Shown: one piece after another, positions 40,302-64,000 of the stretch
How positions within the stretch are numbered: the first letter of the stretch is position 1
Layout of the letters: each line of letters begins with the position of its first letter
IMG/VR virus record: IMGVR_UViG_3300031578_000005
Span: 64,514-128,513 of that record
Direction: 5' to 3' (one strand)
Source: a virus
Length of the DNA stretch: 64,000 nt
Program-made: the position numbers and the translations under genes
The notes under the pieces: model-generated
The model's input: only the letters and a program-made list of their open reading frames with translations
Databases searched by the model: none
What the model was told of the DNA's origin: nothing

Positions 40302-40349
40302 AAACACTTTTGTAACAATAACAGGATTTTAACGTATAATAAAATAAAA

Positions 40350-40980: not shown

Positions 40981-41083
40981 ATCCCTCACAGACGAATTTA
41001 AAAAATCTGTGAGGGTTTTTTATTTTGTAACATTTCCTGATAAATTTCGTATAATAACTATAAACCAATTAAATTATAAGACA

Positions 41084-41844: not shown

Positions 41845-41924
41845 TATCAACAGTTAAAAATCCCCTGTAACAACTATGGGGATTTTTACGTATAACTATC
41901 ATAAACCAATTAATACTATTTATC

Positions 41925-42143: not shown

Positions 42144-42228
42144 CAATTACAGGGAGTTTTTGTAACATTTTTATTTAAAAAAACGTATTATTAATATAAT
42201 CTGATTATGTAATTTAAATCAATTTAAT

Positions 42229-42459
42229 ATGGCAAACTTTAAACTAGTTATTGAAATTGAACTCGATGCTGAAAATCCATTAGATGCCGCAAAAGAGTTT
42301 AAGAATTGGGTGAAAGAAGAATATGATTTTCAATCATACGTATTCTTCTTTCAAAACACTGAAACCAAAGAACTATTTTCTGTAGATTTGAGTGAAGATG
42401 ACGAAGATGCGGTTTTACCTGTTGATCTTTGCGATTATCAACCAGAGATTGAAAAATAA
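42229..42459 (+). CDS. Small acidic protein
   Basis: ORF with own promoter. Confidence 0.6.
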   Translation: MANFKLVIEIELDAENPLDAAKEFKNWVKEEYDFQSYVFFFQNTETKELFSVDLSEDDEDAVLPVDLCDYQPEIEK

Positions 42460-42549
42460 CTACATTAACAAATCTGGTGATAGGTTGTTATTATCACTAG
42501 ATTTGTTAATATTTTCGTAACATTTTTATTTAAAAAACGTATAATAACT

Positions 42550-42635
42550 ATATTGCAAGGCACGATGCTCCAAAGGTATCGGACAGTAGACTCCAAGGTG
42601 CCTTATACTTTGCTTATTTAGAACGATAATAAATA
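42550..42635 (+). ncRNA. Candidate small RNA, copy 2
   Basis: aaggcac..gtgcctt stem; shares tattgcaagg, tatcg, gactccaa and ttatttaga with 36200-36290. Confidence 0.5.
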
Positions 42636-42692
42636 ACTGATTTTCGTAACTTATTTTAAATAAAAACGTATTATAACTACAAACCGAAAATT

Positions 42693-42881
42693 ATGAGTAA
42701 TACATCACCATTAGAACAAGTACCATGCCGAATTAAATATTATCTATTGGATTGGAAAGATACTTATATGAAAGAGTATATTGAAAAATATGGTGATGTT
42801 AGTTTACATAATTTAACCAAGTTACAATTACAGGAATTATTTAATTACATCACAACCACAGATTTAAATACGTTTTTGTAA
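42693..42881 (+). CDS. Hypothetical protein
   Basis: Stop in next promoter. Confidence 0.55.
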   Translation: MSNTSPLEQVPCRIKYYLLDWKDTYMKEYIEKYGDVSLHNLTKLQLQELFNYITTTDLNTFL

Positions 42882-42932
42882 CATCAACAATTAAAATCAG
42901 TATAGTAATTATAAACCAATTAAATCGATATT

Positions 42933-43760
42933 ATGAAATTTGAAAGTATTGGCAATGCAGCAAAACAAGTGGGTGTAGCTTATTTAGGCGGGGTTAATGC
43001 CAGCGCAAAACTTGAAAAGAATTTAAAAGTTGGTCAATATACCTATGGGTTATATTTAGCACCGGCAATGACAAGTGGTTTTAATGTTTGTGAGGGTTCA
43101 ACCCCTGAATGCCGTTTAGGTTGTTTAGCCACAAGTGGCAGGGCAGGAATGGAATTACTTGCGGGCAAAGTTAAAACTCAAAATTCACGGATTAAAAAAA
43201 CCCGTTTGTTTTTTGAACAACCCGTATTTTTTATGCAGTGGTTAATTGCTGAATTGAGTTTTTATCAGGCCAAAGCAAAAAAGGATGGTTATGGTTTTTC
43301 AGCCCGTTTAAATTGCACAAGTGATATTGACTGGGCAAATGTAAGATTTCAGGGCAAAAACATCTTTGAAATATTTCCTGATGTAAATTTTTATGATTAC
43401 ACCAAAATACCTACGAAGTTTTTCAATAAACCCGAAAATTATCATTTAACATTTTCATATACAGGTAAGAATTGGGGTGTTTGTGAAAAACTCCTAAACA
43501 AAGGCAATAGTATTGCCGTTGTGTTTAATGTTAAAAATGAATTGGGATTGCCAGAAACATTTAACGGGTTCAAGGTTGTTAACGGCGATCTAACCGATTA
43601 CAGACCAAATGATGGCAAAGGTGTTATTATCGGGTTAAAATGGAAACGTATTGCAGATAAGATCAACGAAAAACAGATTTTAAATAGTTGTTTTGTGGTT
43701 AATCCTTTAACCTATGTTCAACCTAAAAAGGTCAATGTACATGAACTGGTTTTGGCTTAA
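42933..43760 (+). CDS. Gp88-family (Cys-rich, radical-SAM-like) phage protein
   Basis: LYLAPA..NVC..C..GCL..SGR; RLNCTSDI; FYDYTK; NYHLTFS; GD.TD.R. Confidence 0.7.
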   Translation: MKFESIGNAAKQVGVAYLGGVNASAKLEKNLKVGQYTYGLYLAPAMTSGFNVCEGSTPECRLGCLATSGRAGMELLAGKVKTQNSRIKKTRLFFEQPVFFMQWLIAELSFYQAKAKKDGYGFSARLNCTSDIDWANVRFQGKNIFEIFPDVNFYDYTKIPTKFFNKPENYHLTFSYTGKNWGVCEKLLNKGNSIAVVFNVKNELGLPETFNGFKVVNGDLTDYRPNDGKGVIIGLKWKRIADKINEKQILNSCFVVNPLTYVQPKKVNVHELVLA

Positions 43761-43864
43761 TGTCATTAAACCCCCCTGCTAGTATTAACAGGGGGTTTAA
43801 TCATTATATTAACTAATAACAATTTTTAATTAAAACCAATTAAATATTATTTAAACTTATTATT

Positions 43865-44083
43865 ATGACAATCTATGGATTATATATTGTAAAAAATGGT
43901 ACTGGTATAGATATTGTTAAAGACAATATCCGTGAATGCAAGGAATCTATTAAAGATTATCAACGTGATATTCACTATGCCGAAAAATTAATTGCTAAGA
44001 CAATGACAAAGATTAGAGAATGTGAAGCTAAGATTAAAGAATATCAGCAATTAACTATTGTCAATGGTAAAGTTAAGAAGTAA
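43865..44083 (+). CDS. Small coiled-coil protein
   Basis: ORF. Confidence 0.5.
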   Translation: MTIYGLYIVKNGTGIDIVKDNIRECKESIKDYQRDIHYAEKLIAKTMTKIRECEAKIKEYQQLTIVNGKVKK

Positions 44084-44150
44084 GTGTAACATCTACAAAG
44101 AATTTACGTATGAGAATGTACTGGAATTATAAACCATAAAATTTAAAGCT

Positions 44151-44450
44151 ATGTATAAAGTCAATGCACAAGAATTTATTAAGGCCAATACCATTACTGA
44201 TAAGGATAATATTCGCAAGGCATTATGTATGCCAAAGTCATTCCCTGAGAAGTTATTAACTCCTTTGGTACCTGATGGTATTGCCAAGTTCAAGGGTGAT
44301 AAGTTACCCCGGCCTTGGTCAGTTAATCAACATTTTAATGTTGGTGAAAACTATCCACTTTATTTTAGAGAAACTGAATTTGTTGTAAGTCCTGTTAATG
44401 GTCAGGGAATGAAATTAACTGAGGGTGTATGGTCAGTTAAGACCTTTTAA
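44151..44450 (+). CDS. Hypothetical protein
   Basis: ORF with own promoter. Confidence 0.55.
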   Translation: MYKVNAQEFIKANTITDKDNIRKALCMPKSFPEKLLTPLVPDGIAKFKGDKLPRPWSVNQHFNVGENYPLYFRETEFVVSPVNGQGMKLTEGVWSVKTF

Positions 44451-44477
44451 TGTACGAATTTTAAATAAAAACATATC

Positions 44478-44672
44478 ATGGGAAAAATTATTAAATGGAT
44501 TATCATCATTGTTCTTGCTGTCATATTGTACAAAGCATATAATGCCAGTCAAAAAAACGGCAGGAGTATTATCAACAATGCCGGAAAAGAAAGCAAGGCT
44601 TTGTTTGAACAATCCCAACAAAAGGCCAAGGCCATTACCGATGAATTTAAATCCGGTATGGATGAAGAATAA
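44478..44672 (+). CDS. Small single-TM protein
   Basis: N-terminal hydrophobic helix. Confidence 0.55.
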   Translation: MGKIIKWIIIIVLAVILYKAYNASQKNGRSIINNAGKESKALFEQSQQKAKAITDEFKSGMDEE

Positions 44673-44763
44673 CAACGTAGATTCCCCGATGTTATTGTAA
44701 CATCTACGGGGAATTTTACGTATGAGAATGTACATAAATAAATTTTAACTAAAAATTCATCAA

Positions 44764-45081
44764 ATGAACAATTCAGAATTAAATAATCTATCAATTTCAG
44801 AGTTAAAAGACCTAAGAAATAAAGTGACTGAAATGTTATCACTTAAAATGCAAATTGCCGGTAGAATAAATGCTGATTTTTTAAGTAAAGGAATGACCGT
44901 AAAATATGTCGGTGGAACTAATAAAATTAAGAACGAAAGATTTAAAATTCTTAAAATAAATAAAGTTAATGCTCAATGTAAAAGTTTTTCAACTGGAATT
45001 ACTTGGAACATTAAGTTAGCTAATATTGAACCATGTGAGGCATCTAATTCTGATTTATCAAGTCAAATTATTAAAAACTAA
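44764..45081 (+). CDS. Hypothetical protein
   Basis: ORF with own promoter. Confidence 0.6.
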   Translation: MNNSELNNLSISELKDLRNKVTEMLSLKMQIAGRINADFLSKGMTVKYVGGTNKIKNERFKILKINKVNAQCKSFSTGITWNIKLANIEPCEASNSDLSSQIIKN

Positions 45082-45092
45082 ATTATAATACT

Positions 45093-45254
45093 ATGGAAAA
45101 TGTTAAAAACACCGATGTTATTATCGTAGCTACCAAATATATTAAAGGTGGCAAAGAAGTTGTTAAGTATGATACATCAAATGGTAGATGTTGGGTTGAA
45201 GTTATTAAAGGCGATCTAATCACCATCAAAAAAACATTTGAGATCATCAAGTAA
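45093..45254 (+). CDS. Small hypothetical protein (not in ORF track)
   Basis: MENVKNTDVIIVATKY..FEIIK*; stop in next promoter. Confidence 0.45.
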   Translation: MENVKNTDVIIVATKYIKGGKEVVKYDTSNGRCWVEVIKGDLITIKKTFEIIK

Positions 45255-45311
45255 CATCTACAAAGATTTTACGTATGAGAATGTACATAAACTAATTTAA
45301 ATTATACAGCA

Positions 45312-45755
45312 ATGGGAAATGTTAAAAATTTTAAAAGACAACAAATCAATAAGATCGCAGGTCTATACCTTGCCGAACAAGAAGAGGGTGATTATTACGA
45401 TGCGTACTTAAAACTTATTGAAGCACGTGAAAACGGCAATGGCGATAACCCCGCAGCAAATTTTGTTGATGTATGGGAACCAATTATCTCAATTGGCGTT
45501 GATGAAATGATTGACTTGATTGAACCCGATGAAAATGATGCAATGTACGATGCACCTGAGTTCATTAATAACATGGATTGGTCAATGTTAAAGGAACAGA
45601 AAAAAACATTACTTGAGTTAATTTCATGGAATAAGATACCATTGATGAATGATAATCTAAATGGCATTGTACATCTTATTGATGCTATTCAGGATTATGC
45701 ATGTGATGAATTGGGAATGTCCGTTGATGATGTGTTTGAAATTCCAGAAGAATAA
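45312..45755 (+). CDS. Acidic hypothetical protein
   Basis: ORF with own promoter. Confidence 0.6.
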   Translation: MGNVKNFKRQQINKIAGLYLAEQEEGDYYDAYLKLIEARENGNGDNPAANFVDVWEPIISIGVDEMIDLIEPDENDAMYDAPEFINNMDWSMLKEQKKTLLELISWNKIPLMNDNLNGIVHLIDAIQDYACDELGMSVDDVFEIPEE

Positions 45756-45768
45756 TTATAAAGATATT

Positions 45769-46086
45769 ATGGAAGCAAACAACGCAATTCTTTTTTCAAA
45801 TGTTGATAAAGAAGATTACTGGGTAAGCTCTGGAATTGTTTTCAAAACAGATGCTATCAATCACTATGAAGATGCTTATAATAAATTAAAAGATAAGATC
45901 GAATCAGATGAAGTAATTAATCATGTAGTTGATAAAATGTGTTTAGATGCCGATTTATTTGATTATGACATAACATTTAAGTTTGTACGAACATATTGGA
46001 AATACGGATTATTCTTTGTGTTTGAAAATAGTGAAGGGATAATAAAAGAACATAAAATGCTTGCAGATTTTGTAAGAATATTTTAA
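45769..46086 (+). CDS. Hypothetical protein
   Basis: ORF. Confidence 0.55.
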   Translation: MEANNAILFSNVDKEDYWVSSGIVFKTDAINHYEDAYNKLKDKIESDEVINHVVDKMCLDADLFDYDITFKFVRTYWKYGLFFVFENSEGIIKEHKMLADFVRIF

Positions 46087-46172
46087 AGATATTGTACGGC
46101 AATGTACGATTGGCGGCAGATTAATAATTAATCCCTAAGTATTTATCTGAAAATGCTTGGGGATTTTTAATT

Positions 46173-46535
46173 ATGGAACTAACTAAGGCAATACTTGATG
46201 AATTCAATTCTTATTTAAAAACAATTAAATATAAAAACAAAATCAGCATATTAAAATTAGAATTTCTCACAGATGAAATTGGCGATTATATTTACTTGCT
46301 CTGTATTAAAATAAAACCCAGCCAACAACAAAAAGGCTATGGTGATGCTGTACTTGATGATATCATACAAATTGCTGATAAGTATAATGTCCGTATTAGA
46401 TTATGGGCTACCGATATTTATGGCGTTAGTCTCAAGGCATTGTACGGTTTTTATGGCAAACATGGTTTTAGCTTAATCAAAGACGAATTAGATGGACATA
46501 TGATCTATCACCCAAAAAAGATCAGAAAGCATTAA
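46173..46535 (+). CDS. GNAT-like acetyltransferase
   Basis: IKPSQQQKGYG motif A, L.GFYGKHGF; TATTTAT motif upstream. Confidence 0.6.
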   Translation: MELTKAILDEFNSYLKTIKYKNKISILKLEFLTDEIGDYIYLLCIKIKPSQQQKGYGDAVLDDIIQIADKYNVRIRLWATDIYGVSLKALYGFYGKHGFSLIKDELDGHMIYHPKKIRKH

Positions 46536-46613
46536 ATACAGATTTTAATTATTGTTTTTGTAACATCTACCGATAATATCCGTATAATAATTATTAATAT
46601 TAAATGTTTAGTT

Positions 46614-46859
46614 ATGAAAAAACTTATTTATTTACTATTTGTAATAGTATTAACGGGATGTGGTTATTCTACTCCAATATTAAATGATTCAAGAGAACCA
46701 TTTGTCGTTAGTAAAATATTACCATTTAACAAAAGTCATGTTAAATATATTGGTAATATGCAAAAATCATCACTAACCTTCACTCCAGAATCAGTAAGCA
46801 CAGCAATAATTGCTCCTGTTGGAATGTATAATATCGGAGACACGATTTCATTAAAATAA
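46614..46859 (+). CDS. Small lipoprotein
   Basis: MKKLIYLLFVIVLTG-C lipobox. Confidence 0.65.
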   Translation: MKKLIYLLFVIVLTGCGYSTPILNDSREPFVVSKILPFNKSHVKYIGNMQKSSLTFTPESVSTAIIAPVGMYNIGDTISLK

Positions 46860-46935
46860 ATTTAATAATTGCTTTTGTAACATCTACCGATAATGTCCGT
46901 ATAATACCAATATAAACCTTTAAAAATCAATTGTT

Positions 46936-47277
46936 ATGAAATTCTATCAGAACATCAATACAAACGAAATTATTGGCGTTGATAATATGCGCCAAGTAAT
47001 TTCACACCCAACAGAACAATCAATGAGAGCGGGTTTTGTTAACTATTCATATGAGGTTGTTTATGATATGATTTGCCCCAATAAAATCCTTGGTGAAGGC
47101 ATTACGTCATTTTGTATCACCAATTCTTTTTTAACTAAAAACTATAAGAGAATTAAAAGAGAAATTGCTTTAAATCGATATCCAAATTTTAATCAGTATC
47201 GACATAAACAACTATGTGATGAAGCAAGTATTAGTGGTATTGAAAAATTGGATATAATCAGAAAGCAAACATTTTAA
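46936..47277 (+). CDS. Hypothetical protein
   Basis: ORF with own promoter. Confidence 0.6.
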   Translation: MKFYQNINTNEIIGVDNMRQVISHPTEQSMRAGFVNYSYEVVYDMICPNKILGEGITSFCITNSFLTKNYKRIKREIALNRYPNFNQYRHKQLCDEASISGIEKLDIIRKQTF

Positions 47278-47291
47278 ATTAAAACAATTCA

Positions 47292-48632
47292 ATGAAAACA
47301 ATTAAAGACTTTACACCAGAAATACAATCAAAAATTCCTGAATATATTAAAAAATATACTGAGGGAATTGAAGATGGAAAACGATATAAGAATTTCAATT
47401 TAACTGATGCTGAAAATCTAATTCATTGGAATTATGAATTATGTAATTATAAAAAACCTGTTATTATTGTTGCTGAAAATCCCTTTGAATCACAAATAAT
47501 CTTTAATTATATCGTAGCAAATAAAGAACGGTTTTTGCCAATGTTGTATTTAATATATTCATTAAAAAATAACATAAAAGAAAATATTGAGAAATTTTTT
47601 GTGAAAGGTTCTCAACTAGATTCTCAACTACATTCTCAACTAGATTCTCAACTACATTCTCAACTAGGTTCTCAACTACGTTCTCAACTAGATTCTCAAC
47701 TACATTCTCAACTAGGTTCTCAACTACGTTCTCAACTACATTCTCAACTACATTCTCAACTACGTTCTCAACTACATTCTCAACTAGGTTCTCAACTACA
47801 TTCTCAACTACTTTCTCAACTAGGTTCTCAACTAGATTCTCAACTACTTTCTCAACTACGTTCTCAACTACGTTCTCAACTACTTTTTCAACTACATTCT
47901 CAATATAATAATGATTGGTTATTTACTACTAATATTTATTCCAATGTATTAATTTCGTGGTTTATGTTTATAAAAGATGAATTTAATATTGAATCAGAAA
48001 TTGGTATTAAATTAGATTCATGGAATGATTTGTATTTAAAATCAAACATTTATTCTGCAATATTTTCTGAACTAGTGTGTGTTGTAAGTAAATATCCACA
48101 AAAGATACATAGAAATACTGATGGTTTATTACATAATTTAGATGGAAATGCTGTTGAATGGAATTCAATTTCAGTTGAAACCAAATTTGATTGTTATTAT
48201 ATTAATGGTCGAAATATGCCATCATGGATTTTTGATAAATTCAAAAATAATCAATTACAAAAAGAAGATTTTTTAAATGAAGAAAATGAAGATATTAAAG
48301 CCGGGATATATGAATTGATTGAAAGTAAAGGTGAGGGCAGTATGTTGACATTTTTAAATGCTATTGAGGTAGATAGAAAAACAATACCCCATGAATATGG
48401 TGAAGAAGAATTTATATTGTACAAGACAAAAGAAAAATTCAATGAAGAAGTGGATTTAAATGGTAATTCTCCATCAGAATTGGCTTGGTTAAAAATGACA
48501 TGTCCCTCAACCGGATCAAATTATCTAATTCCTTCGGATGCAAGTTTTAATGACTGTGTTACTGCAGCAAAATATCATCGGCCAATTTTTGTACCAGAAG
48601 ATATTCCATATTATTGGAATAGTAGAAACTAA
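47292..48632 (+). CDS. DUF6745-like protein with SQLx tetrapeptide repeat tract
   Basis: ~24 x 12-bp ttctcaactaNN at 47609-47903; LHNLDG.A..W, MTCPSTG..Y motifs. Confidence 0.7.
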   Translation: MKTIKDFTPEIQSKIPEYIKKYTEGIEDGKRYKNFNLTDAENLIHWNYELCNYKKPVIIVAENPFESQIIFNYIVANKERFLPMLYLIYSLKNNIKENIEKFFVKGSQLDSQLHSQLDSQLHSQLGSQLRSQLDSQLHSQLGSQLRSQLHSQLHSQLRSQLHSQLGSQLHSQLLSQLGSQLDSQLLSQLRSQLRSQLLFQLHSQYNNDWLFTTNIYSNVLISWFMFIKDEFNIESEIGIKLDSWNDLYLKSNIYSAIFSELVCVVSKYPQKIHRNTDGLLHNLDGNAVEWNSISVETKFDCYYINGRNMPSWIFDKFKNNQLQKEDFLNEENEDIKAGIYELIESKGEGSMLTFLNAIEVDRKTIPHEYGEEEFILYKTKEKFNEEVDLNGNSPSELAWLKMTCPSTGSNYLIPSDASFNDCVTAAKYHRPIFVPEDIPYYWNSRN

Positions 48633-49374: not shown

Positions 49375-49448
49375 TGATGTGTAGCTCAGTTGGTTAGAGT
49401 ACCTGCTTAAACTGTAGGAGGTCGTGGGTTCAAGTCCCATCACATCAT
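49375..49448 (+). tRNA. tRNA with atypical anticodon loop ttAAAct (nominal Phe-AAA; undetermined)
   Basis: tgatgtg/cacatca, gctcagttggttagagt D-arm, cctgc/gtagg, gtggg-ttcaagt-cccat. Confidence 0.65.
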
Positions 49449-52234: not shown

Positions 52235-52847
52235 GTTATATGCAATGCTACGTTTGTGCTTCGTGTTAAGTTTCATCGTAACATTCTTTTTGTTTTATTT
52301 TCCCAACGCTCTTAAAAATTCATTAATACTTTTAGTTGTTTCAAAACCTTCACCCGTGTGAAAAAAATAGTTTTGAAGTTTTCCATTTCGAGTTATAAAC
52401 CCTTGTGATTTAACCTTTGTTGGTATTCCCATATATGGTGTTTTACCATCAACATCATCTGAATCTATAATTGTGTATTTTTCTCCATAGTTAGCACCAT
52501 TATAAAAGTCTTCTTTTCCAGAAACCTTAATATCATATTTACCCAACACATAAATAATTCCATTTACGGAATCTGGTTCAATTTCAGTGTTTTCATTTAA
52601 CTTTCCACCAAAGTTTTTCACTTGGTCAATTAATTTTCTCATTTCGTTTTCCATATATTTTATTTTACATATAAATATTCAGAATTAAATTTTCCACCAC
52701 ACAAAAATAAAACAAAAGGGTTCATCTCTCGTATCAAGTTTATTGTTAAATCCGCACAGCATATAACAACGTGTATAAAATATAGCCAATTAAGGTCTGT
52801 GGTTTATATCAAATGTTGTGTGTGGCTACGTTTCATACACGCAGCCG
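52235..52847. mobile_element. Solitary attC-like cassette, inverted relative to the 56-64 kb array
   Basis: Starts GTTATATGC (52235), ends GCATATAAC (52759-52767), then hairpin gtgtat..tagcc...ggcta..atacac and GTT (52847). Confidence 0.7.
52295..52654 (-). CDS. Cassette cargo protein with MRKLID..LNE N-terminus
   Basis: 119-aa ORF; TATTTAT motif upstream. Confidence 0.6.
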   Translation of the reverse strand: MENEMRKLIDQVKNFGGKLNENTEIEPDSVNGIIYVLGKYDIKVSGKEDFYNGANYGEKYTIIDSDDVDGKTPYMGIPTKVKSQGFITRNGKLQNYFFHTGEGFETTKSINEFLRALGK

Positions 52848-52997
52848 TTAGCATAATCAACACTGACATTAGTATGAGTTTAAGTATGGATTAAAGAACA
52901 AATATTATAATTTGATGTTTTTTGTAACATCTACAGGATTTTTACGTATAGGAATTAAATAATTAAAACAATAAATTCAATCTAAAAACTTCTGACT

Positions 52998-56006: not shown

Positions 56007-56110
56007 GCTACCAGAAAATTTGTTGGCTTAAACATAGCAGATAATTTATTTTGTAACATTTTCTGTTAATATACGTATAATGGCTAAACTTTGTGATAAA
56101 GAACGAGAAA

Positions 56111-56485
56111 ATGAAAATAAAACAATATGAATGGATTAAAAAAGAAATTGGTGTTAGGGAATTTTCTTTACCCACAGTTCCCGTATATTTTTTTGAAACA
56201 GGAATAAGACGTGCTATAAGGATAATACCAGTTTCTTTAGGTGAAGATAAAATCATCAATGCCATTGAGATTACATTTGTTTATAATTCCTCAGAATGTA
56301 AGATCGAAGTATTTAGTGTTCCTGTCACAGAAATTGAAGATATTTATCATCTTCAAGGTGAAAGGCTTCACAGATTTTTTGTAAATTGGATTGATGGGGA
56401 TTTAAATACAAGAACTAAAGAACAATTTGATGGTGATTTACAACTTGCATTAAATCAAATTATAAATCGAACATATTTTATTTAA
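56111..56485 (+). CDS. Hypothetical protein
   Basis: ORF after ECF promoter at 56052. Confidence 0.6.
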   Translation: MKIKQYEWIKKEIGVREFSLPTVPVYFFETGIRRAIRIIPVSLGEDKIINAIEITFVYNSSECKIEVFSVPVTEIEDIYHLQGERLHRFFVNWIDGDLNTRTKEQFDGDLQLALNQIINRTYFI

Positions 56486-56538
56486 ACCAGCACTAAACCG
56501 CTTATACATATTGTTAGGCATATGTGCTTTAAATTCAA

Positions 56539-56724
56539 ATGATTATGACAAAGAATGAAATTATTAAAAAACGTTATCCCTTTTTCAATGGAAAAAATAT
56601 TGAATTAGATTTAGAAGAAACAAAGGAACTTATGAATGACCTATTAGATGTAGTTATTTCAATGTATGTTCCTGATGGTAATCCTGAAATATGGTTGAAT
56701 AAAATACAAAAGTTACGTGATTAG
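56539..56724 (+). CDS. Cassette ORF, hypothetical
   Basis: Between GTT 56513 and TAAC 56743. Confidence 0.55.
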   Translation: MIMTKNEIIKKRYPFFNGKNIELDLEETKELMNDLLDVVISMYVPDGNPEIWLNKIQKLRD

Positions 56725-56807
56725 GTTTCTTGGTATTATGCTTAACTGCTAAGTATATGGTGCATTGCAATTAGATGCACTAATTTTTAAATTTTAAATA
56801 CACACAA

Positions 56808-57167
56808 ATGAAAAATAAAGGGATTAAACAACAACCCACAGAGTCAAGCAATGATTTATATACATTGTCATGCCCCGTTGATTTATTTCGTTATTTCCTG
56901 CGTAAAAACTACAAGGATATAGATATAAGTAATGAAGAGTGTGATGGCATTGGAGAAGAATTTTACGAATACCTGCGAAACTTGAATTTAACCGAAGAGC
57001 AAAAGCGAAACATATTGCCTAAAAATACATTTGACGTAATATTAAACAGCGAACACCCATTCAGAACTAATGGCTTTCCTGCCGCTTATGTTATACATTT
57101 TGCGCAATTTGTAGAGCAGCAGAAACAAAAAGCGTTGGCAGAAGGTTATGATCCAAATGGGGCATAA
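56808..57167 (+). CDS. Cassette ORF starting inside hairpin loop
   Basis: Stop codon is the TAA of core TAAC 57165. Confidence 0.6.
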   Translation: MKNKGIKQQPTESSNDLYTLSCPVDLFRYFLRKNYKDIDISNEECDGIGEEFYEYLRNLNLTEEQKRNILPKNTFDVILNSEHPFRTNGFPAAYVIHFAQFVEQQKQKALAEGYDPNGA

Positions 57168-57201
57168 CTGCTGCAAATATATATTTTAGTTAAATTTTGA
57201 T

Positions 57202-57483
57202 ATGGTACAAATTATTTTAGAACAGATAAATGAAGTAAGCAAATTTTGTGTAGGAAAAAATATTTCTTACATAAAATTTGACTATACAAAAGACTATTCA
57301 ATATTAACACAAATAGGAATAAATGGATACAATATTTATTTAGAAATATTTTTTGATGTAAAATCTGATACAGTAGAAGATGTGTGTGTTAATGTATATA
57401 AAGACAAGAAATGTAAATTTGCTTACGGAGGAACTATGAAAGATTGTTTGAAACGAATTACTGATGAAATCAAATTTAATTAA
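57202..57483 (+). CDS. Hypothetical protein wholly inside an attC-like loop
   Basis: Flanked by caaatatat..ttaaattttgat / atcaaatttaa..atatatttg arms. Confidence 0.6.
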   Translation: MVQIILEQINEVSKFCVGKNISYIKFDYTKDYSILTQIGINGYNIYLEIFFDVKSDTVEDVCVNVYKDKKCKFAYGGTMKDCLKRITDEIKFN

Positions 57484-57521
57484 ATATATTTGTTGTTATA
57501 ACATTCAGTTAATTATTGATT

Positions 57522-57737
57522 ATGAAAACATTGGAATACAGCGATTTTTTAACCAGCAGAATAGATTACTGCTTGTGTGATGATAATAAAACAAATTTAG
57601 AAAAGATTAATACTTTAAATATCTACAAAAAAAATTACGGTGATTTATTGGCTAATAATTATCTTCCATTAGATGAAGTTGAAAGGTTAAAAAATCAACT
57701 ACGAAGAATAGATGATAACATTAAGTCGTTGTCTTAG
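57522..57737 (+). CDS. Cassette ORF, hypothetical
   Basis: Between GTT 57495 and TAAC 57745. Confidence 0.55.
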   Translation: MKTLEYSDFLTSRIDYCLCDDNKTNLEKINTLNIYKKNYGDLLANNYLPLDEVERLKNQLRRIDDNIKSLS

Positions 57738-57814
57738 TTGGATGTAACGGTCGGCAATATGAAGCGGTTGTAATTAGATGCACTAATTTTTAAATAACTA
57801 AAAACGATAATAAA

Positions 57815-57997
57815 ATGAACAAACTTAAAATTAAAGAGTATGCCAACAATGCATTATATACTGTATTAGTTGCCGTGTTTTTGTGGGTGATGGTTAGTAA
57901 TACCATACAGGCTTTTAAATGCCCAAGTATGACACGCACACAACTGTTTTTACACACACCTAAATCGTTTGTGTGTGATTGGCAACATTGCAACTAA
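57815..57997 (+). CDS. Cassette ORF, small membrane protein
   Basis: Starts in loop; stop is core TAAC 57995. Confidence 0.55.
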   Translation: MNKLKIKEYANNALYTVLVAVFLWVMVSNTIQAFKCPSMTRTQLFLHTPKSFVCDWQHCN

Positions 57998-58097
57998 CGT
58001 TTTTCATATCTTAAATAATAACATCAAGTTTAATAAATGTTCTTGTAACATCTGCAAAATCTTTACGTATAAGTATTCACAATAAATCGATAAGTAT

Positions 58098-58541
58098 ATG
58101 AAAAATTTAGAATTTAAAGGATTTGATGGACACTTGATATTATTATGTAAAAGTCATTATAAACTCACCGAAAGCTTTATCGAGAGTTTAAAAATGATCT
58201 GGGCAATAAGATGTGGATATCCTTATGATAAAAACGATAATTCATCTATAAGATATATTTTAGATGGATTATATAAGATTCTTGAACCTACAATTGAAAA
58301 TCCTCAACAATTTCAAGAAAAATTACATGAGAGTTTAATTTCGTGTATTTATGACCTCAATACATTGGAGAAGTTAGTACTTTTCTATCGTGATGAAATA
58401 TCCATGCTTCAAGTGCGTGAAAAATCCGCTAATGGTAAATGGACGACCTTAATTAAATTACCCCAGCCCCAAAAAAGATTATTTAATAGAATATTAACGG
58501 GTAATGGTAGATATGATGATTACAAATTAATTCAAAAATAA
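58098..58541 (+). CDS. Hypothetical protein
   Basis: ORF after ECF promoter at 58043. Confidence 0.6.
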   Translation: MKNLEFKGFDGHLILLCKSHYKLTESFIESLKMIWAIRCGYPYDKNDNSSIRYILDGLYKILEPTIENPQQFQEKLHESLISCIYDLNTLEKLVLFYRDEISMLQVREKSANGKWTTLIKLPQPQKRLFNRILTGNGRYDDYKLIQK

Positions 58542-58549
58542 CCGTAAAT

Positions 58550-58903
58550 ATGGAAACAAGAACAACACATGAATTGCTTACGATCTTAAGAGATAATGCT
58601 AAGGTTGATCAAACAGGATTGATAATTCGAGCAGGACTTTGCTATGAAGTTGGCCCCCTGAATACTAAAGAACTAATTAATGATGATGAATATTCATTGT
58701 TACGTCATTATATTAAGGTTAATATGCCCAAATATACAATTCCTGTTGATACTAAAATTATTGACTATGACGATAATTTCAACATAATCGATCATTACGA
58801 TGATTTTAGTCAAACTGGTTTTGGTTGGCTACCAACATCATGGAAACCTAGATTGAGGTGGTTAAATAAACACATTAAGTTAACTTTAAAAAATGCCGTT
58901 TAA
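58550..58903 (+). CDS. Hypothetical protein
   Basis: RT..ELL.IL..GLC..W..PRL.WL. Confidence 0.6.
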   Translation: METRTTHELLTILRDNAKVDQTGLIIRAGLCYEVGPLNTKELINDDEYSLLRHYIKVNMPKYTIPVDTKIIDYDDNFNIIDHYDDFSQTGFGWLPTSWKPRLRWLNKHIKLTLKNAV

Positions 58904-58933
58904 TTGTTTGTAATAACAGGTTAATTAAAAAAT

Positions 58934-59107
58934 ATGAAAAAATTATTAAAATTAATAGAAAAGTACGAAGAAAAAAGCGGAAGGACTTGTGTCGAAATCC
59001 GAATTTTTTCAGATGGTAGTGGAACAGTAACTGAGTGGGACTTTGAACTTTTTTCTTTTAATAATTTAGAAGAACTGAACAAATGGTTGGTAGGTTGTTC
59101 TATTTAA
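58934..59107 (+). CDS. Small hypothetical protein (not in ORF track)
   Basis: MKKLLKLIEKYEEKSGRTCVEIRIFSDGSG... Confidence 0.45.
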   Translation: MKKLLKLIEKYEEKSGRTCVEIRIFSDGSGTVTEWDFELFSFNNLEELNKWLVGCSI

Positions 59108-59118
59108 AACATGATAAA

Positions 59119-59370
59119 ATGAATTGGAATAACGGAACATTACAGACACCACAATTGAGAATACAAATTACAAACTCTCATATCCAAGCAAAAGGGATTT
59201 GGGTTATGCATGTAAGAGAATTTAACTGGAACACAAAACAAATTGGCGTACCAAATGAAGCTACCGAAGAAGAAGCCCAAATTGCAGCTGTTGAATTAGT
59301 GAGGAAGTATGTAAATGATATGCTGACTGCTTTAAATGGCTTACTTGAAAGAAACCAAAAAGACTGTTAA
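59119..59370 (+). CDS. Hypothetical protein
   Basis: ORF. Confidence 0.55.
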   Translation: MNWNNGTLQTPQLRIQITNSHIQAKGIWVMHVREFNWNTKQIGVPNEATEEEAQIAAVELVRKYVNDMLTALNGLLERNQKDC

Positions 59371-59454
59371 GCAAAAAAATGGAACTCGAATAAACCCAGT
59401 GCCGAAATAACCGACACTGATAATTGATTAAAACAAATTTAAAACCTAGAAATA

Positions 59455-59796
59455 ATGAGCGATTTAAAAGTAGAAGATTTTTTTAGAAAATGGGTAGGAA
59501 CTAGACCCAATTTAAAGACAGCCTTTCATGAAGCTGGAATTGAAGCTATGGCATTTGCAGTAGCTTACCATAAAGCACTACAGAAAGCGAATGAGGCTGA
59601 AACGGGAGAAAGCAACTGCACTATATTTGGTGTTATACACTGGGCGTTTTTACCAGAACAGACACCAAGCTACGGTGATGAAATACTATTAGTTTACCCA
59701 CCAGAGCAAATGACAAAGCCGATTGTTACAATATACGATAGAAATACAGAATGGATTGATGGTTGCAAGTACGCAGTTATTACGCCTTGTGTATAA
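59455..59796 (+). CDS. Hypothetical protein reading through an attC-like right arm
   Basis: GTTATACAC at 59632 is complementary to GTGTATAAC at the stop (59789-59797). Confidence 0.55.
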   Translation: MSDLKVEDFFRKWVGTRPNLKTAFHEAGIEAMAFAVAYHKALQKANEAETGESNCTIFGVIHWAFLPEQTPSYGDEILLVYPPEQMTKPIVTIYDRNTEWIDGCKYAVITPCV

Positions 59797-59861
59797 CGGA
59801 AAGTATATGTTTTCGGTTGCGATTAAAAGCAGCTAATCATCAATTACAAATAAACTTACAA

Positions 59862-60122
59862 ATGGGAGTAAAAGGAATAAGAACGAACGAAACCGCAACT
59901 GAAATATATACAGTGTTACCAACTTTTAAAATTAATTTACTAAAATATATCAAAATGAGAAAATGGATTAATTTAATACGATTTATCAAAAAGCACCGAA
60001 GTAGAGGCATTGCTTCCTTTAGTGTAGTAACCAATAGCGATACTTTCATAATAACCACAGAAGATTGTGAACAAACAGAAGCTTCTTGGAAAGAAAATAT
60101 GCTTAGGATACCTTACAGATAG
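59862..60122 (+). CDS. Cassette ORF, hypothetical
   Basis: ATG in hairpin loop, or at downstream MRKWIN. Confidence 0.5.
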   Translation: MGVKGIRTNETATEIYTVLPTFKINLLKYIKMRKWINLIRFIKKHRSRGIASFSVVTNSDTFIITTEDCEQTEASWKENMLRIPYR

Positions 60123-60224
60123 CCGCAATGCTGGCATTAATTTTTATTGTGGGTAACGTTGAGTATTGGCGTTTGTTGCCGATTAGAAAGCACTTAATTA
60201 TCAAATTACTAAACACTTTATAAA

Positions 60225-60428
60225 ATGGAAAATACTTCAAATACCCACGAAAACGGCAATAACGCTAATACTGTGTTATGTGGCGTTATTGATAGGATAT
60301 TAACCGAAAAGAAAGTAGATAGTTGTCCCAAAATATTACCACAATGCCAATTAGGTGATGTTTGCATATTATGTGATACAATGACTAAAGATAAGCCTAA
60401 AAACTGTCTTAGACATAATGCCACATAA
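60225..60428 (+). CDS. Cassette ORF, Cys-rich, with MENTSNTHENG leader
   Basis: Starts in loop; stop is core TAAC. Confidence 0.55.
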   Translation: MENTSNTHENGNNANTVLCGVIDRILTEKKVDSCPKILPQCQLGDVCILCDTMTKDKPKNCLRHNAT

Positions 60429-60495
60429 CGTTGAGTATTGGCGTTGTTGCCGATTAGAAACCACAAAATTATTAATTTACTAAATACTTTATAAA

Positions 60496-60708
60496 ATGGA
60501 AAATACTTCAAATACCCACGAAAACGGCAATTGCGCTAACCGTGTGTTAGCGGTTGTTACTCCTGAAATGGAGCAATTCGCAAGTGAATATGGTTTATTT
60601 ATCATATCAGTAGGGCAAAAATATATCAATGCTTTATCGCCTGATTTTACGACAGAAAGCAGTATGGAAATATTTAAACGTGAGTATTGGGGTCGGAAGT
60701 GGTTTTAA
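60496..60708 (+). CDS. Cassette ORF with same MENTSNTHENG leader
   Basis: Hairpin near-identical to 60154-60278. Confidence 0.55.
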   Translation: MENTSNTHENGNCANRVLAVVTPEMEQFASEYGLFIISVGQKYINALSPDFTTESSMEIFKREYWGRKWF

Positions 60709-60822
60709 TAACCGCTAACGTTGACAATAAGAAATGTATGGGATTTAGAAGCAGTAACCTATCCACATACACCGAACTAAATTAAATTTGCATTTGTAAT
60801 TATATTTGTGTATATTTGTAGT

Positions 60823-61377
60823 ATGAAAGCATACGTTTATACACATACAAGATTAGATACCAATGAAATATTTTATGTTGGCATTGGAACACAAGACAAT
60901 TACAGGAGGGCATCAAAAACGGTAAATAGGTCTGTATTTTGGAAAAACATAATAAATAAAACTGGATGGAAAGTAGATATTGTTTTTGATAATTTAAGTT
61001 GGGATAAAGCTTGTGAAATAGAAAAAGAATTAATAATAAAATATGGGCGTAAAGATTTATGTTTAGGTAGTTTAGTTAATTTAACAGACGGAGGTGACGG
61101 AAATTCTGGAAGAAAAATATCACAAGAAACAAGACAAAAAATGTCAAATATGAAAAAAGGCGTTCCAAAATCTGATGAACATAAAAAAAATATGAGTATA
61201 GCACTAAAAAACAATAACAGTACAAAAGTGATTGATACAAATACAGGCTTTATTTATAATTCTGTACACGAAGCAGCTGAAGAAAATGGGTTAAAAAACT
61301 ATGTTTTAAGTAACTACTTAACTGGTAGAACGAAAAACAACACGACATTAAAATATTATATTGATAAAACTTGTTAA
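60823..61377 (+). CDS. GIY-YIG-like homing endonuclease with NUMOD3/NUMOD1-like DNA-binding modules
   Basis: YVYTH..FYVGIG..R; LVNLTDGGDG; SQETRQKMS..SDEHKKNMS; YNSVHEAA; upstream TAnnTTTG promoter. Confidence 0.75.
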   Translation: MKAYVYTHTRLDTNEIFYVGIGTQDNYRRASKTVNRSVFWKNIINKTGWKVDIVFDNLSWDKACEIEKELIIKYGRKDLCLGSLVNLTDGGDGNSGRKISQETRQKMSNMKKGVPKSDEHKKNMSIALKNNNSTKVIDTNTGFIYNSVHEAAEENGLKNYVLSNYLTGRTKNNTTLKYYIDKTC

Positions 61378-61505
61378 AGTTTAATTATAAAACAATTAAG
61401 GCGAAGAAGCGTAGCCTTTATGAACGCTTCATAGTACAACTGCACAATTTGGCACAAACACCCATATATTTTTTATTGTGTGTTACCACCAGTATTTTAT
61501 TCATC

Positions 61506-61673
61506 ATGGCTAAAAAAACTAATAAGAAAATTAACTGGAGTAAATGTGATAAACCTTACAAAGAGATATTTCACGGAATTTGCTTCAATTATTGCATAAA
61601 TCGAAACTGCTTAATATCGAAAGAAACGTGTGTCGCTTATCAAAAATGGGATAAGTCCGATGGGGTCTTTTAA
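61506..61673 (+). CDS. Cassette ORF, small Cys-rich
   Basis: Between GTT 61482 and TAAC 61683. Confidence 0.45.
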   Translation: MAKKTNKKINWSKCDKPYKEIFHGICFNYCINRNCLISKETCVAYQKWDKSDGVF

Positions 61674-61726
61674 TATTGGCGGTAACGGTTGCAAATATGA
61701 AACGTTACAACACAAATGATAATTAA

Positions 61727-61754
61727 TGTAACAAAAATTGAAAATTAACGTATA
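61727..61754 (+). promoter_or_regulatory. ECF-type promoter inside an attC-like loop
   Basis: TGTAAC-aaaaattgaaaattaa-CGTATA. Confidence 0.6.
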
Positions 61755-61812
61755 ATATAATTGCAACACAACAGCAATGTTTTATATTTGTTGTTATAAA
61801 CATGTAAAAATT

Positions 61813-61998
61813 ATGGAGCAGAAAAAATTAGTAGAAAAGTTGATTAAGGCATCAAATGAAATTTCTAAAAATAGAAAACCGAGTGCCAATTATATACATC
61901 TAAGTAAAGAATATATACAACAGCAAGCAGATGAACGAAAAATTTCATTTGATGACATGGTAGAAATTATTAAAAAGGAACTGATGCCTAATGAATAA
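61813..61998 (+). CDS. Cassette ORF, hypothetical
   Basis: Between GTT 61793 and TAAC 62012. Confidence 0.55.
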   Translation: MEQKKLVEKLIKASNEISKNRKPSANYIHLSKEYIQQQADERKISFDDMVEIIKKELMPNE

Positions 61999-62096
61999 TT
62001 TTTATTGTTTATAACATTGAATGTATGTGTAGTACAGCCTTGCACATATTTTCAACTTAAAACTAAACTTAATTGGCTGTATTACATATACATATT

Positions 62097-62216
62097 GTTA
62101 TAAAACGTTTATTATGATTGACAAACTACATACAGAAATTGAAAACTTCATAAATTCAGATAATGACTGGATGCGTAAAACCTATGAAGTCGATGAAGCA
62201 AATACTTATACACCTT
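62097..62216 (+). pseudogene. Truncated cassette fused to next right arm
   Basis: GTTATAAAAC start lacks a complementary end; ORF MIDKLH.. runs into cttatacacct-tGTTA. Confidence 0.45.
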
Positions 62217-62338
62217 GTTATATGCTGTGCGGAAATATACCACTAAACTTAAATCGAAGAACTAAACCTTTTTGTTTTATTTTTGTGGGAGGATTTTAAA
62301 AAATTGAATATTTATATAGAATAAAACTATTTAATAAT

Positions 62339-62887
62339 ATGGAATTAAGAAAATTTATAGCAACTACTATACGTGAATATTTGAACGAACAAGAAATTGG
62401 TGGAAGTGGGTTGATTTTATATCATGGTTCTGGTGAAGATAAACCATTTGAAAAATTCAATAACAATCAATTTTTCACGGTAAATGATTATATTGCATGT
62501 AATTATGCTGAAAATAATGGTGGCTTACTCTATAAGGTTAAAACAGATATAAGAAAAACTTTAGAACTTAAAGGTAATTATGTAAGTCTTGGTGGAAAAT
62601 CTATGAAAACTATCGAACCAGAACAATATGAGTTAGAATATAGTTTAGTGAAAAAATTATATGGTGATTCAGCTTTAGAACATTGGTTGAATCATGGATT
62701 TAATCCAAGTCCTGCACATGTTTTTAACGGTGATTATACAGCAATAATTAATTGGGCAAAAAATAATGGTTATGATTCTATTAAATTTTTTGATGAGTCA
62801 TTTGATACATTTGTTAGGGATATTACGTATATAATTTTTAATGGAAATAATATTAAAATTATTGATGTTAGTGAACCTGATTGCTAA
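62339..62887 (+). CDS. Putative ADP-ribosyltransferase-fold (ART-PolyVal-like) cassette cargo with IREYLNE N-terminus
   Basis: LYHGS..F..F..FFT..A..YA...GYDSI..YIIF..NIK. Confidence 0.6.
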   Translation: MELRKFIATTIREYLNEQEIGGSGLILYHGSGEDKPFEKFNNNQFFTVNDYIACNYAENNGGLLYKVKTDIRKTLELKGNYVSLGGKSMKTIEPEQYELEYSLVKKLYGDSALEHWLNHGFNPSPAHVFNGDYTAIINWAKNNGYDSIKFFDESFDTFVRDITYIIFNGNNIKIIDVSEPDC

Positions 62888-63051
62888 AAATAAAACAAAA
62901 AGAATGTTACGATGAAACTTAATACGAAGCAGAAACGCAGCATTGCATATAACGGACGGCAATATATGTAGTTGCCTTGCACAAAACTTTAAAATTATTA
63001 TAAACCTTAATAGGCAATTACATATATTGCTTGTTAGCAACAGTACGGATT

Positions 63052-63285
63052 ATGAAAAAAATTGATGAATATAGCGAAAAAGCTGGTGCTTTATTTTTGA
63101 TAGAACAGCACACTATCGGTAATTTACGTGATGAAGCTGATTTGAATAACGCCAAATATCACGCACAACAGACAGTAGGTTTTATTGAAGATTTATTGTT
63201 GAATATAGATGGTACGATTGAAGATAAGATTCAATTTCTATCAAAAATAAAGGAAGAAATACCTAAATTTCACGGTAAGGGTTAG
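63052..63285 (+). CDS. Cassette ORF, hypothetical
   Basis: Between GTT 63033 and TAAC 63295. Confidence 0.55.
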   Translation: MKKIDEYSEKAGALFLIEQHTIGNLRDEADLNNAKYHAQQTVGFIEDLLLNIDGTIEDKIQFLSKIKEEIPKFHGKG

Positions 63286-63360
63286 TATTGTTGCTAACGG
63301 TCAAGCGTAAGATACGTTGCGATTTAATGCACAAATTTTTAAACTTATAAAAACATTGAT

Positions 63361-63579
63361 ATGAAACAGAAAAATAACAAATTAGCACAATTTAAGCAAT
63401 GGATTTTACGCTTTGTTATAGGGCGTTATTTCTATTACTTATTCAATATATTAGTTGGATTGGTCATTGCTTTATTAACATATCCATTTAGATTAATAGG
63501 TGGTAAAATAGGGTTAAAATCTGATATATGCTCATGGCTCGATAAACACTTTCCATTGCCTGATGATAATGCCCTATAA
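63361..63579 (+). CDS. Cassette ORF, membrane protein
   Basis: Starts in loop; stop is core TAAC 63577. Confidence 0.55.
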   Translation: MKQKNNKLAQFKQWILRFVIGRYFYYLFNILVGLVIALLTYPFRLIGGKIGLKSDICSWLDKHFPLPDDNAL

Positions 63580-63638
63580 CGGTCGCAGATATACTAAGTT
63601 TTTGATTAAATAGTAATAATTTTAAATAACAGATAACG

Positions 63639-63887
63639 ATGAAAAATGAACAAAAATATTATAACTTACCAGACCAAAAATTTGGTATATCTGGTGTTAT
63701 TAGTAATTATTCATGTCCAATATGTGATTTAGGACATAAACCTAAAAAAGTTTTTTATATTCCAATAAAAGATAAGAATGGAATACCAAAAGATAAATCA
63801 CTAAGAGTAATAGAAGGTAGTGAATTACATAAAAAACTTTTGAATGGTGGTACAAAATTGCCTATGTGCTGGATTGTTGAAGAATAA
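63639..63887 (+). CDS. Cassette ORF with CPIC motif
   Basis: Starts in loop, reads through GTT 63696. Confidence 0.55.
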   Translation: MKNEQKYYNLPDQKFGISGVISNYSCPICDLGHKPKKVFYIPIKDKNGIPKDKSLRVIEGSELHKKLLNGGTKLPMCWIVEE

Positions 63888-64000
63888 TTACTTATAACGT
63901 TGAGTATAAGAAACGTAGCGTTTTGAAATACTGAACAACAATAACTTACAAATGTAAAATTGAAATAGAAACTTAATATTAACCACAGGCTCAGCTATGT

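Follow-up and report, generated by a model that had tools for sequence, protein, structure and literature searches.

The stretch analysed here (the window, 64,000 nucleotides; coordinates refer to it unless the contig is named) is the second half, positions 64,514 to 128,513, of the 128,513-base linear IMG/VR phage contig IMGVR_UViG_3300031578_000005. Because this linear record is rated 39% complete by CheckV, the complete genome is probably about 300 kb long. From 56.5 kb to the contig end, small plus-strand open reading frames (ORFs) alternate with imperfect TAAC...GTTA inverted repeats. Thirteen of these hairpins, A to M, lie within 56743-64000, confirming the hairpins that an original prediction, made from the sequence alone, had placed between the small genes of 56.5-64.0 kb. 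This array, and its resemblance to the gene cassettes of integrons, is the subject of the present analysis.

Hairpin detection was energy- and model-based, and the scores below come from a covariance model trained on 26 hairpins from three phages. It recovers 11 of the 13 hairpins; B and G were recognised by arm complementarity only, because their loops hold whole genes. With default filters the search skipped two of its own training hairpins, at contig 61086-61174 and 61779-61863. Anchored stem scans scored by simple matches failed to distinguish true hairpins from shuffled sequence and were dropped; a profile limited to the 5' arm was too weak (best E 0.008). Four relatives appear in the list of features: L162, a 95.7-kb metagenome contig; LR756500.1, a 462-kb uncultured phage whose core genes are only 65-70% identical to those of this phage; and the Cellulophaga phages phi19:3 and phi13:2.

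56482..56516, plus strand: leftmost half site, like a 3' arm and ending in GTTA (56513-56516), with the 5' arm absent upstream; the module is 81% identical in L162.
56513..56746, plus strand: cassette body c0, ends GTTAGGCATA.../...TATGCTTAAC, matching at 9 of 10 positions by eye; ORF 56539-56724.
56743..56870, plus strand: hairpin A, 3' core variant GTCA; loop holds the ATG of ORF 56808-57167; 38.3 bits, E 0.0027.
56866..57168, plus strand: cassette body c1, ends GTCATGCCCC/GGGGCATAAC; its right end AAATGGGGCATAAC is also in phi19:3.
57165..57498, plus strand: hairpin B, loop is the whole ORF 57202-57483; 23 matched arm positions; TAAC (GTTATAAC) directly after.
57745..57868, plus strand: hairpin C, 3' core variant ATTA; loop holds the ATG of ORF 57815-57997; 44.2 bits, E 0.00025.
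57995..59793, plus strand: stretch without a recognisable hairpin; five ORFs, TAAC at start and end.
59794..59918, plus strand: hairpin D, 67.2 bits; a variant with a 7-nt loop occurs in two metagenome runs.
60154..60278, plus strand: hairpin E, 82.1 bits; loop encodes MENTSNTHENG...
60426..60549, plus strand: hairpin F, 77.9 bits.
60716..61485, plus strand: hairpin G, whose arms enclose, as the loop, the homing-endonuclease gene 60823-61377 (phrog_314, E 4e-22).
61683..61796, plus strand: hairpin H, 77.9 bits; 84% identity to LR756500.1 400595-400723.
62012..62100, plus strand: hairpin I (short class), 64.4 bits; DNA fold z -2.5.
62217..62953, plus strand: cassette body with conserved ends GTTATATGC/GCATATAAC; ORF 62339-62887, weak ART-PolyVal match.
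62950..63036, plus strand: hairpin J (short class), 80.5 bits; DNA fold z -4.53.
63295..63418, plus strand: hairpin K, 83.3 bits.
63577..63699, plus strand: hairpin L, 78.7 bits; 78-80% identity to phages phi19:3 and phi13:2.
63895..64000, plus strand: hairpin M, 36.4 bits, 3' end lost at the contig end; complete copy in L162.
52235..52850, minus strand: solitary unit, hairpin 52850-52764 (78.3 bits) plus body 52767-52235 with gene 52654-52295.

The hairpins are built alike. Each reads TAAC, a spacer of 5-6 nt, a stem of 17-18 bp, a loop of 30-80 nt, the returning stem, a spacer of 2 nt and GTTA. At the base TAACGG pairs with TTGTTA through two G.T wobbles, above which lies a 3-nt bulge on the 5' side, and two more G.T positions are conserved in the stem, in every case with the G on the 5' arm. 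Hairpins of the long class, about 124 nt, have in their loop an A/T-rich conserved motif together with the start codon (ATG) of the following ORF, which makes their 3' arm coding sequence; many cassette genes begin within the loop like this. In the short class (about 87-89 nt) the ATG comes after GTTA. Across the 26 training hairpins the paired cells reached 92.3%, compared with 68.6% in shuffles (none of 500 shuffles reached 92.3%) and 33-48% in slid controls, and compensatory changes were found in 14 of the 17 upper-helix pairs. Folded as single-stranded DNA, seven plus-strand hairpins gave z-scores of -0.67 to -4.53 against dinucleotide shuffles, three of them weaker than -1.2; these modest values arise because long loops cost energy. 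The hairpin structure is thus supported by covariation, not by folding energy.

The mismatches also tell which strand folds. Transition mismatches are G.T on the sense strand far more often than on the other strand, 31:4 in 16 hairpins and 150:15 in 64 further hairpins from nine IMG/VR loci, and RNA energies made 64 of 64 hairpins more stable on the gene strand. In the minus-strand unit at 52.8 kb, and in both of the divergent arrays of LR756500.1, the hairpins are oriented with their own genes. Since both the G.T mismatches and the stability follow the gene strand, one strand folds, the sense strand, as DNA or as RNA. In integrons, the bottom strand is the recombined one. The strand that folds here is unlike that of integrons.

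Many cassette bodies have ends that are complementary to each other. All eight end pairs named in the original prediction were found in the sequence:

59632/59797: GTTATACAC/GTGTATAAC
60275/60429: GTTATGTGGC/GCCACATAAC
60546/60719: GTTAGCGGTT/AACCGCTAAC
61793/62015: GTTATAAACA/TGTTTATAAC
62217/62953: GTTATATGC/GCATATAAC
63033/63298: GTTAGCAACA/TGTTGCTAAC
63415/63580: GTTATAGGGC/GCCCTATAAC
56866/57168: GTCATGCCCC/GGGGCATAAC

GTTA is followed by six variable bases and G-T-W, and W-A-T plus the complement of those six bases stands before the next TAAC, which yields one more conserved G.T; the TAA of the core is often the stop codon of the gene. Among 6110 GTTA..TAAC pairs 30-1500 nt apart in the 128.5-kb contig, 17 had a perfect inner extension of at least 6 nt, compared with 1-7 in ten local shuffles, so the complementarity exceeds the shuffled level that the original prediction had named as evidence against itself. 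Such pairs run consecutively in three clusters, at contig 31.0-32.5 kb, contig 61.0-62.4 kb and window 59.6-63.6 kb. When hairpins were taken as boundaries in this contig, LR756500.1 and phage phi19:3, a match of at least 8 of 10 positions was found in 14 of 29 cognate but only 15 of 1196 non-cognate end pairs (Mann-Whitney p = 7e-8), a comparison in which the end coordinates of hairpins A and C were mis-set, which lowers the cognate count. In LR756500.1 the genome-wide number of end pairs of at least 6 nt (23) was not above that in shuffles (21-32), and only their clustering at 399.9-412.1 kb is informative. We also searched IMG/VR with a degenerate pattern for the short hairpin class (allowed length 76-106 nt), which matched at least 117 stretches with lengths peaking at 87-90 nt. 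In the 80 of 117 loci examined, 46 of 89 hairpins had a downstream partner end matching at 9 or more of 10 positions, compared with 7 of 89 with a foreign end, G.T wobbles being counted as matches.

Where units have recently been gained or lost, the borders lie at TAAC. Comparison of 128 loci yielded a single near-identical pair that differs by indels, L158 and L159, with three events; another pair, L093/L134, gave no indel information, as the contig ends inside the array. L158 and L159 are 98.9-100% identical over the aligned blocks, and all three differences run from TAAC to TAAC. The first is an extra 392 nt in one of the phages, consisting of TAAC, hairpin, GTTA, gene and end, with TAACGGYTG flanking both sides; the second, in the other phage, is an extra 744 nt made up of two such units, which follow the last cassette end and precede the terminal site at the recombinase gene; and in the third a 1229-nt segment stands against a 224-nt replacement, with TAAC at both borders. 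Population variants of the array itself were seen in Logan contigs. In two soil runs, from metagenomes that hold this phage, position 57744 is joined to 59794 within TAACGG and position 58000 to 60721 past TAACGT, and the T of TAAC at 60716 is the exact point of divergence of four contigs. Hairpin G also occurs without its homing-endonuclease gene (joint 60786>61434, one and three contigs in the two runs). L162 has a copy of hairpin M (97% identity) that follows another cassette, the two sequences parting at TATAAC; three further modules are shared in another order, and the array continues one unit past the point where the present contig ends. The original prediction had expected gain and loss exactly at the core, at G|TT; the core does bound them exactly, on its TAAC side. 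Because the recent breakpoints sit at TAAC, the 5' base of the hairpin, the mobile unit is a hairpin plus its downstream gene, the mirror image of an integron cassette, and in such a TAAC-to-TAAC unit each ORF stays, with its start codon, within one unit.

A candidate enzyme is encoded beside the arrays of relatives. PF00589, the tyrosine recombinase family, was present in 20 of 50 IMG/VR records, a picked subset of the hairpin-bearing ones. Eighteen of the 20 carry one small recombinase each (open frames of 268-301 aa, 111-150 bits; one frame has an in-frame stop that leaves 172 aa), and 16 of these 18 genes share the strand of the matched hairpin, 1.0-6.3 kb downstream of it; of the remaining two, one is 12 kb downstream and one far off on the other strand. 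As the records span 55-362 kb, this proximity cannot be chance. In all ten loci that we fetched, sense-strand hairpins stand upstream of the recombinase gene and none after it (6-11 hairpins in nine loci, two in L153); the ORF is complete in nine, and L157 has an in-frame stop. In eight of nine loci the unit end after the last detected hairpin has a complementary TAAC partner (9-12 of 12 positions, wobbles counted), and in most of these no hairpin but a TATAATATATAA-like sequence or GTGGGGTTAGACATCAC follows the partner TAAC, 40-60 nt ahead of the recombinase ATG. L161 has an empty mini-cassette at this terminal site, and in L153 and L160 the recombinase gene starts further on.

For eight of eight array-linked recombinases the best NCBIfam model was NF040815 XerA, at 168-207 bits, just under the cut-off of 220, and the integron-integrase models scored far lower in relation to theirs (TIGR02249 148-168 bits, cut-off 265; NF011946 69-112 bits, cut-off 435). 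The best relatives of solved structure are archaeal XerA 4a8e (E 4e-40) and 5hxy, and the catalytic motifs HxLRH and LGH..TTxIYTH align. Against VchIntIA there are two aligned blocks, with 33 residues between them where VchIntIA has 81, about 48 fewer; this is the region of the IntI-specific domain. To judge from these alignments, the linked enzyme of the relatives, 264-277 aa long, is not IntI but a simple tyrosine recombinase of the Xer type, a class with CB and CAT domains only, about 270-300 aa and RHR...Y catalytic motifs. Thus, a search for an IntI-like tyrosine recombinase, as the original prediction advised, found none in this contig and in the relatives a tyrosine recombinase of a different kind. 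The same prediction had the enzyme acting in trans, as none is in the window. None is found in the whole contig either; action in trans does not follow, because this contig stops within hairpin M and the recombinase gene of relatives comes just downstream of the array, so that the enzyme may be encoded beyond the contig end. A serine recombinase is present in the contig at 43699-44112 (Resolvase domain, 70.7 bits, open frame of 224 aa); it was rejected as the array enzyme, being far from any array and absent from LR756500.1.

The same hairpins occur in other phages. In LR756500.1 the model finds two groups of sites whose cassettes have complementary ends, 12 on the minus strand (400.3-404.4 kb) and three on the plus strand (409.4-410.1 kb). 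Outside 400.3-410.1 kb it finds none; hits thus fall only in arrays and on the sense strand. Its plus-strand cassettes carry larger genes, encoding radical SAM and leucine-rich-repeat proteins (410164-411819; 10164-11051 and 11169-11819 of the fetched locus). Cellulophaga phage phi19:3, a marine phage of 76 kb, has the same hairpin-cassette layout. Its gp031 (5364-5732 of the fetched locus) and LR756500.1 399888-400256 are, by eye, clearly homologous over their full length; in LR756500.1 this gene lies inside a GTTAGCAACA...TGTTGCTAAC cassette and in phi19:3 behind a half hairpin. In species-representative genomes the short-class pattern matched 104 stretches. Among the matches listed, 41 of 80 loci name Bacteroidota taxa in their record titles and many others are short contigs of metagenome bins.

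We consider it about 70% probable that the array belongs to a phage-borne, integron-like cassette system with a TAAC core at the 5' base of a sense-strand hairpin and, in relatives, a Xer-type recombinase encoded after the array. In such a system a unit would extend from one TAAC to the next and comprise the hairpin, its loop often with the start codon, GTTA, the gene body, the complementary end and TAA. Recombination between two TAAC cores, presumably by the relatives' recombinase, which would cut a folded single strand rather than a duplex, would excise the unit as a circle. In circular form the two ends particular to the unit would lengthen the hairpin stem, giving a single long site, and the circle could re-enter at another TAAC, including the hairpin-less terminal TAAC 40-60 nt before the recombinase gene of the relatives.

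Several observations weigh against this reading. No PF00589 match at E of 1 or below was found in this contig and none in LR756500.1, which also has no serine recombinase, its only match being a sub-threshold Y1 transposase (13.7 bits, seven stop codons); near its arrays, our search for a recombinase met only a glycosyltransferase, radical SAM proteins, a leucine-rich-repeat protein, GNAT and ClpP. PF00589 is missing from 30 of the 50 hairpin-bearing records and, among the 14 that are at least 90% complete, from eight, while a ninth has only one of 394 aa. The three TAAC-to-TAAC indels come from a single pair of phages, and the Logan joints have sides of 20-46 nt at a likeness threshold of 85%, each being weak alone. 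No circle junction was seen among the Logan joints listed, and contigs cannot show rare forms. Some borders lie elsewhere than at TAAC: hairpins E and F share 90% identity over the length between TAAC and GTTA and are followed by unrelated genes, an older border at GTTA; one Logan contig diverges right after GTTA at 62100; and the conserved-end bodies 62217-62953 and 52235-52767 have their ends in common and differ in the hairpin upstream. End types (GCAACA, TGCCCC, GAGTGC) recur in distant phages with unrelated genes, for example GTTAGCAACAGTAC...TATTGTTGCTAAC in this contig and LR756500.1 and AAATGGGGCATAAC in this contig and phi19:3. Because of this recurrence the cassette ends form a limited vocabulary and are not free sequence.

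The G.T asymmetry, finally, is as compatible with an RNA structure as with a folded strand of DNA. The hairpins might accordingly be RNA elements of early or accessory transcripts, acting in processing, stability or the control of translation, with genes shuffled by homologous recombination between hairpin modules and the complementary ends closing a panhandle in the mRNA. The strong sense-strand bias (31:4, 150:15, 64/64) with its four conserved G.U positions, the G always in the 5' arm, would be expected of such elements, as would loops with a conserved A/T-rich motif and often a start codon, the weak DNA folds (z -0.67 to -4.53) and the many hairpin genomes without a recombinase, and there is a precedent in the PeSLs, promoter/stem-loop cassettes of T4-type phages (PMC2839356, PMC4122927). 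However, homologous exchange in modules of about 100 nt should not put three of three recent indels exactly from TAAC to TAAC, and it leaves unexplained both the Xer-type recombinase just after the array in 16 of 18 records and the hairpin-less terminal TAAC site beside its gene. No Rfam family matches the hairpins at E of 1 or below, and no RNase III domain (PF14622) was found in this contig or LR756500.1. We therefore regard RNA elements with homologous shuffling, the main rival, as an unlikely account of the array, though the two roles are compatible and one hairpin could serve both.

Two further explanations are less likely still. The array could be the remnant of a classical integron, a cluster of attC sites lacking an integrase (CALIN), in which captured attC sites are recombined by a host IntI on the bottom strand at G|TT. 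The attC-type features are present here: an imperfect hairpin, AAC/GTT cores, a spacer-plus-stem layout, cassette-specific complementary bases and a length of 87-125 nt, as in attC. The contig has 13 hairpins and no recombinase, in an array cut by the contig end. CALINs have been reported in 17 phages, including a Polaribacter phage, and IntI1 recombined five of the six phage attC sites tested (PMC9892861). Yet the polarity of the present system is opposite, with wobbles on the sense strand, indels at TAAC and the hairpin tied to the downstream gene; genes start inside the hairpin; the linked enzyme stays under the integron-integrase cut-offs (TIGR02249 148-168 vs 265 bits); and the family is concentrated in phage contigs and Bacteroidota-titled records, which together make a captured integron remnant very improbable. 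An HUH enzyme of the IS200/IS605 type, inserting single strands 3' of the tetranucleotide TAAC, would account for strand-specific mismatched hairpins and for a fixed 4-nt site that stands as a direct repeat around each unit. IS608 resembles this hairpin-plus-tetranucleotide layout. Such transposition is hardly credible here, since no Y1 transposase scored above the cut-off in this contig or LR756500.1 (best 13.7 bits, the frame with seven stop codons), the linked gene encodes a tyrosine recombinase, and the units stand head to tail in arrays rather than scattered. A dif-like site and RuvC-type resolution were considered as well and set aside. We thus return to the integron-like cassette system as the preferred reading.

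As for the cargo, Pfam and PHROGs searches left eight of ten cassette proteins without a name, and ORF 62339-62887 matched PF18760 (ART-PolyVal) at 27.1 bits, below the cut-off of 31.2. The accessory genes are likely to serve host takeover and anti-defence; in this array they are mostly ORFans, together with the ART-like gene and the homing endonuclease. The protein 56093-56485, encoded directly upstream of the array, had no relative in IMG/VR, blastn of 56400-59800 against phages gave no match, and the exact 22-nt loop motif had no match in IMG/VR. The body of the solitary minus-strand unit has the same ends as 62217-62953 and a different gene: the two share about 120 nt on the left (78%) and 67 nt on the right (95.5%), their genes are unrelated, and an inner inverted repeat, CTTTTTGTTTTATTTT / AAAATAAAACAAAAAG, brackets the cargo of both. 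This arrangement suggests that a second level of exchange may operate at the inner inverted repeats of such conserved-end bodies.

Other features of the contig may be noted. Further hairpins lie at contig 31.2-32.3 kb (three) and 61.1-61.9 kb (two), and at window 22682-23675 a plus-strand gene is followed by a minus-oriented hairpin of the same family in which CAAC/GTTG cores replace TAAC/GTTA. A second, unrelated repeat family occupies window 30060-47900, with many intergenic copies of 45-75 nt and 78-100% identity (for example 31110-31180, 33117-33167, 35527-35571 and 41553-41604), and tandem repeats lie at 38482-38855 and 47608-47903. Fourteen tRNA genes score above the Rfam gathering score, within 7829-14408 and at 49375-49448, 13 of them clustered at 7.8-14.4 kb.

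Integrons are the textbook device for capturing and reshuffling genes, and they are thought to need a specialised integrase. A widespread phage system with the cassette logic of integrons, a simple Xer-type enzyme, reversed polarity and a recombination site that carries expression signals would show a second route to hairpin-based gene capture and explain how the many small accessory genes of large phages turn over. It would also explain why assemblies break inside arrays, as in this contig and L162, and would give an experimental handle of one small enzyme and one site of about 90 nt. Going further, we lean slightly towards the view that Bacteroidota phages of about 40 to more than 400 kb have a capture system of their own, parallel to integrons and either of separate origin or diverged early, with a Xer-type enzyme without the IntI insertion, a TAAC core and a coding-strand hairpin that carries expression signals and the start codon. 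On that view, recombination of single-strand hairpins could dispense with the IntI-specific domain, and a large part of the turnover of ORFans in these phages would come from site-specific exchange, not from illegitimate or homologous recombination.

The original prediction knew of no description of such an arrangement as a phage gene-capture system. There are precedents in print, the CALINs and the PeSLs; in the literature we found no description of the hairpin family, its polarity or its Xer-type partner. CALINs, attC clusters without an integrase, occur in virulent phages including a Polaribacter phage (Qi et al. 2023, PMC9892861), and they share with the present arrays the attC-like clusters without an integrase in lytic phages, one of them flavobacterial. 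They differ in having been called by attC models, with as few as two sites, and examined by bottom-strand tests with IntI1; section 3.4 of that paper mentions no Xer-type enzyme, mirrored polarity or hairpin-borne start codons, and its main text, which leaves the names of the 17 CALIN phages to the supplements, does not contain the word Cellulophaga. PeSLs, for which mini-circles were reported in T4-type phages (PMC2839356), are likewise small conserved regulatory modules between non-essential genes of large phages and mark points of gene gain, loss and replacement (PMC2839356, PMC4122927). As described there, however, a PeSL places a sigma70-like promoter beside a compact terminator stem-loop and is exchanged by homology. 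Here, a long-range stem encloses the loop motif, a 4-nt core has complementary flanks and, in relatives, a tyrosine recombinase is linked. The pdif (XerC/XerD) modules of Acinetobacter plasmids, which use 28-bp duplex sites and the host XerC/D, are similar in that Xer-type bounding sites alternate in orientation and inverted half-site copies flank each module, and different in that they are not known to have long hairpins, strand asymmetry or a phage context.

The closest likeness is to integrons themselves. In both systems small genes stand in arrays, separated by imperfect hairpin sites; the sites have invariant AAC/GTT cores, two paired boxes with an unpaired spacer between them and a variable loop, and unit-specific bases beside the core are complementary across one cassette. 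Both have a tyrosine recombinase of the Xer/IntI branch beside the array, here in the relatives, and in both arrays without a recombinase occur. In contrast, the relatives' recombinase is 264-277 aa long, about 48 residues shorter than VchIntIA between the aligned blocks, and is encoded downstream of the array and co-oriented with it, not divergently at attI. Classical integrons also have a common promoter Pc and promoterless cassettes, whereas many of the present genes start in the hairpin loop. Folding is on the sense strand; with recent breakpoints at TAAC, the hairpin precedes its gene and does not trail it; start codons and a conserved A/T-rich motif lie in the loops; and the phages are linked to Bacteroidota. 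The integron-like reading first proposed is thus partly supported: the architecture of cassettes exchanged at a fixed core has stood, with the tyrosine recombinase beside the arrays of relatives as further support, and an IntI enzyme and a crossover at G|TT have not. By the tests made here, the system is not a member of the integron family, from which it departs in enzyme, strand, crossover side and platform layout, but it works like one.

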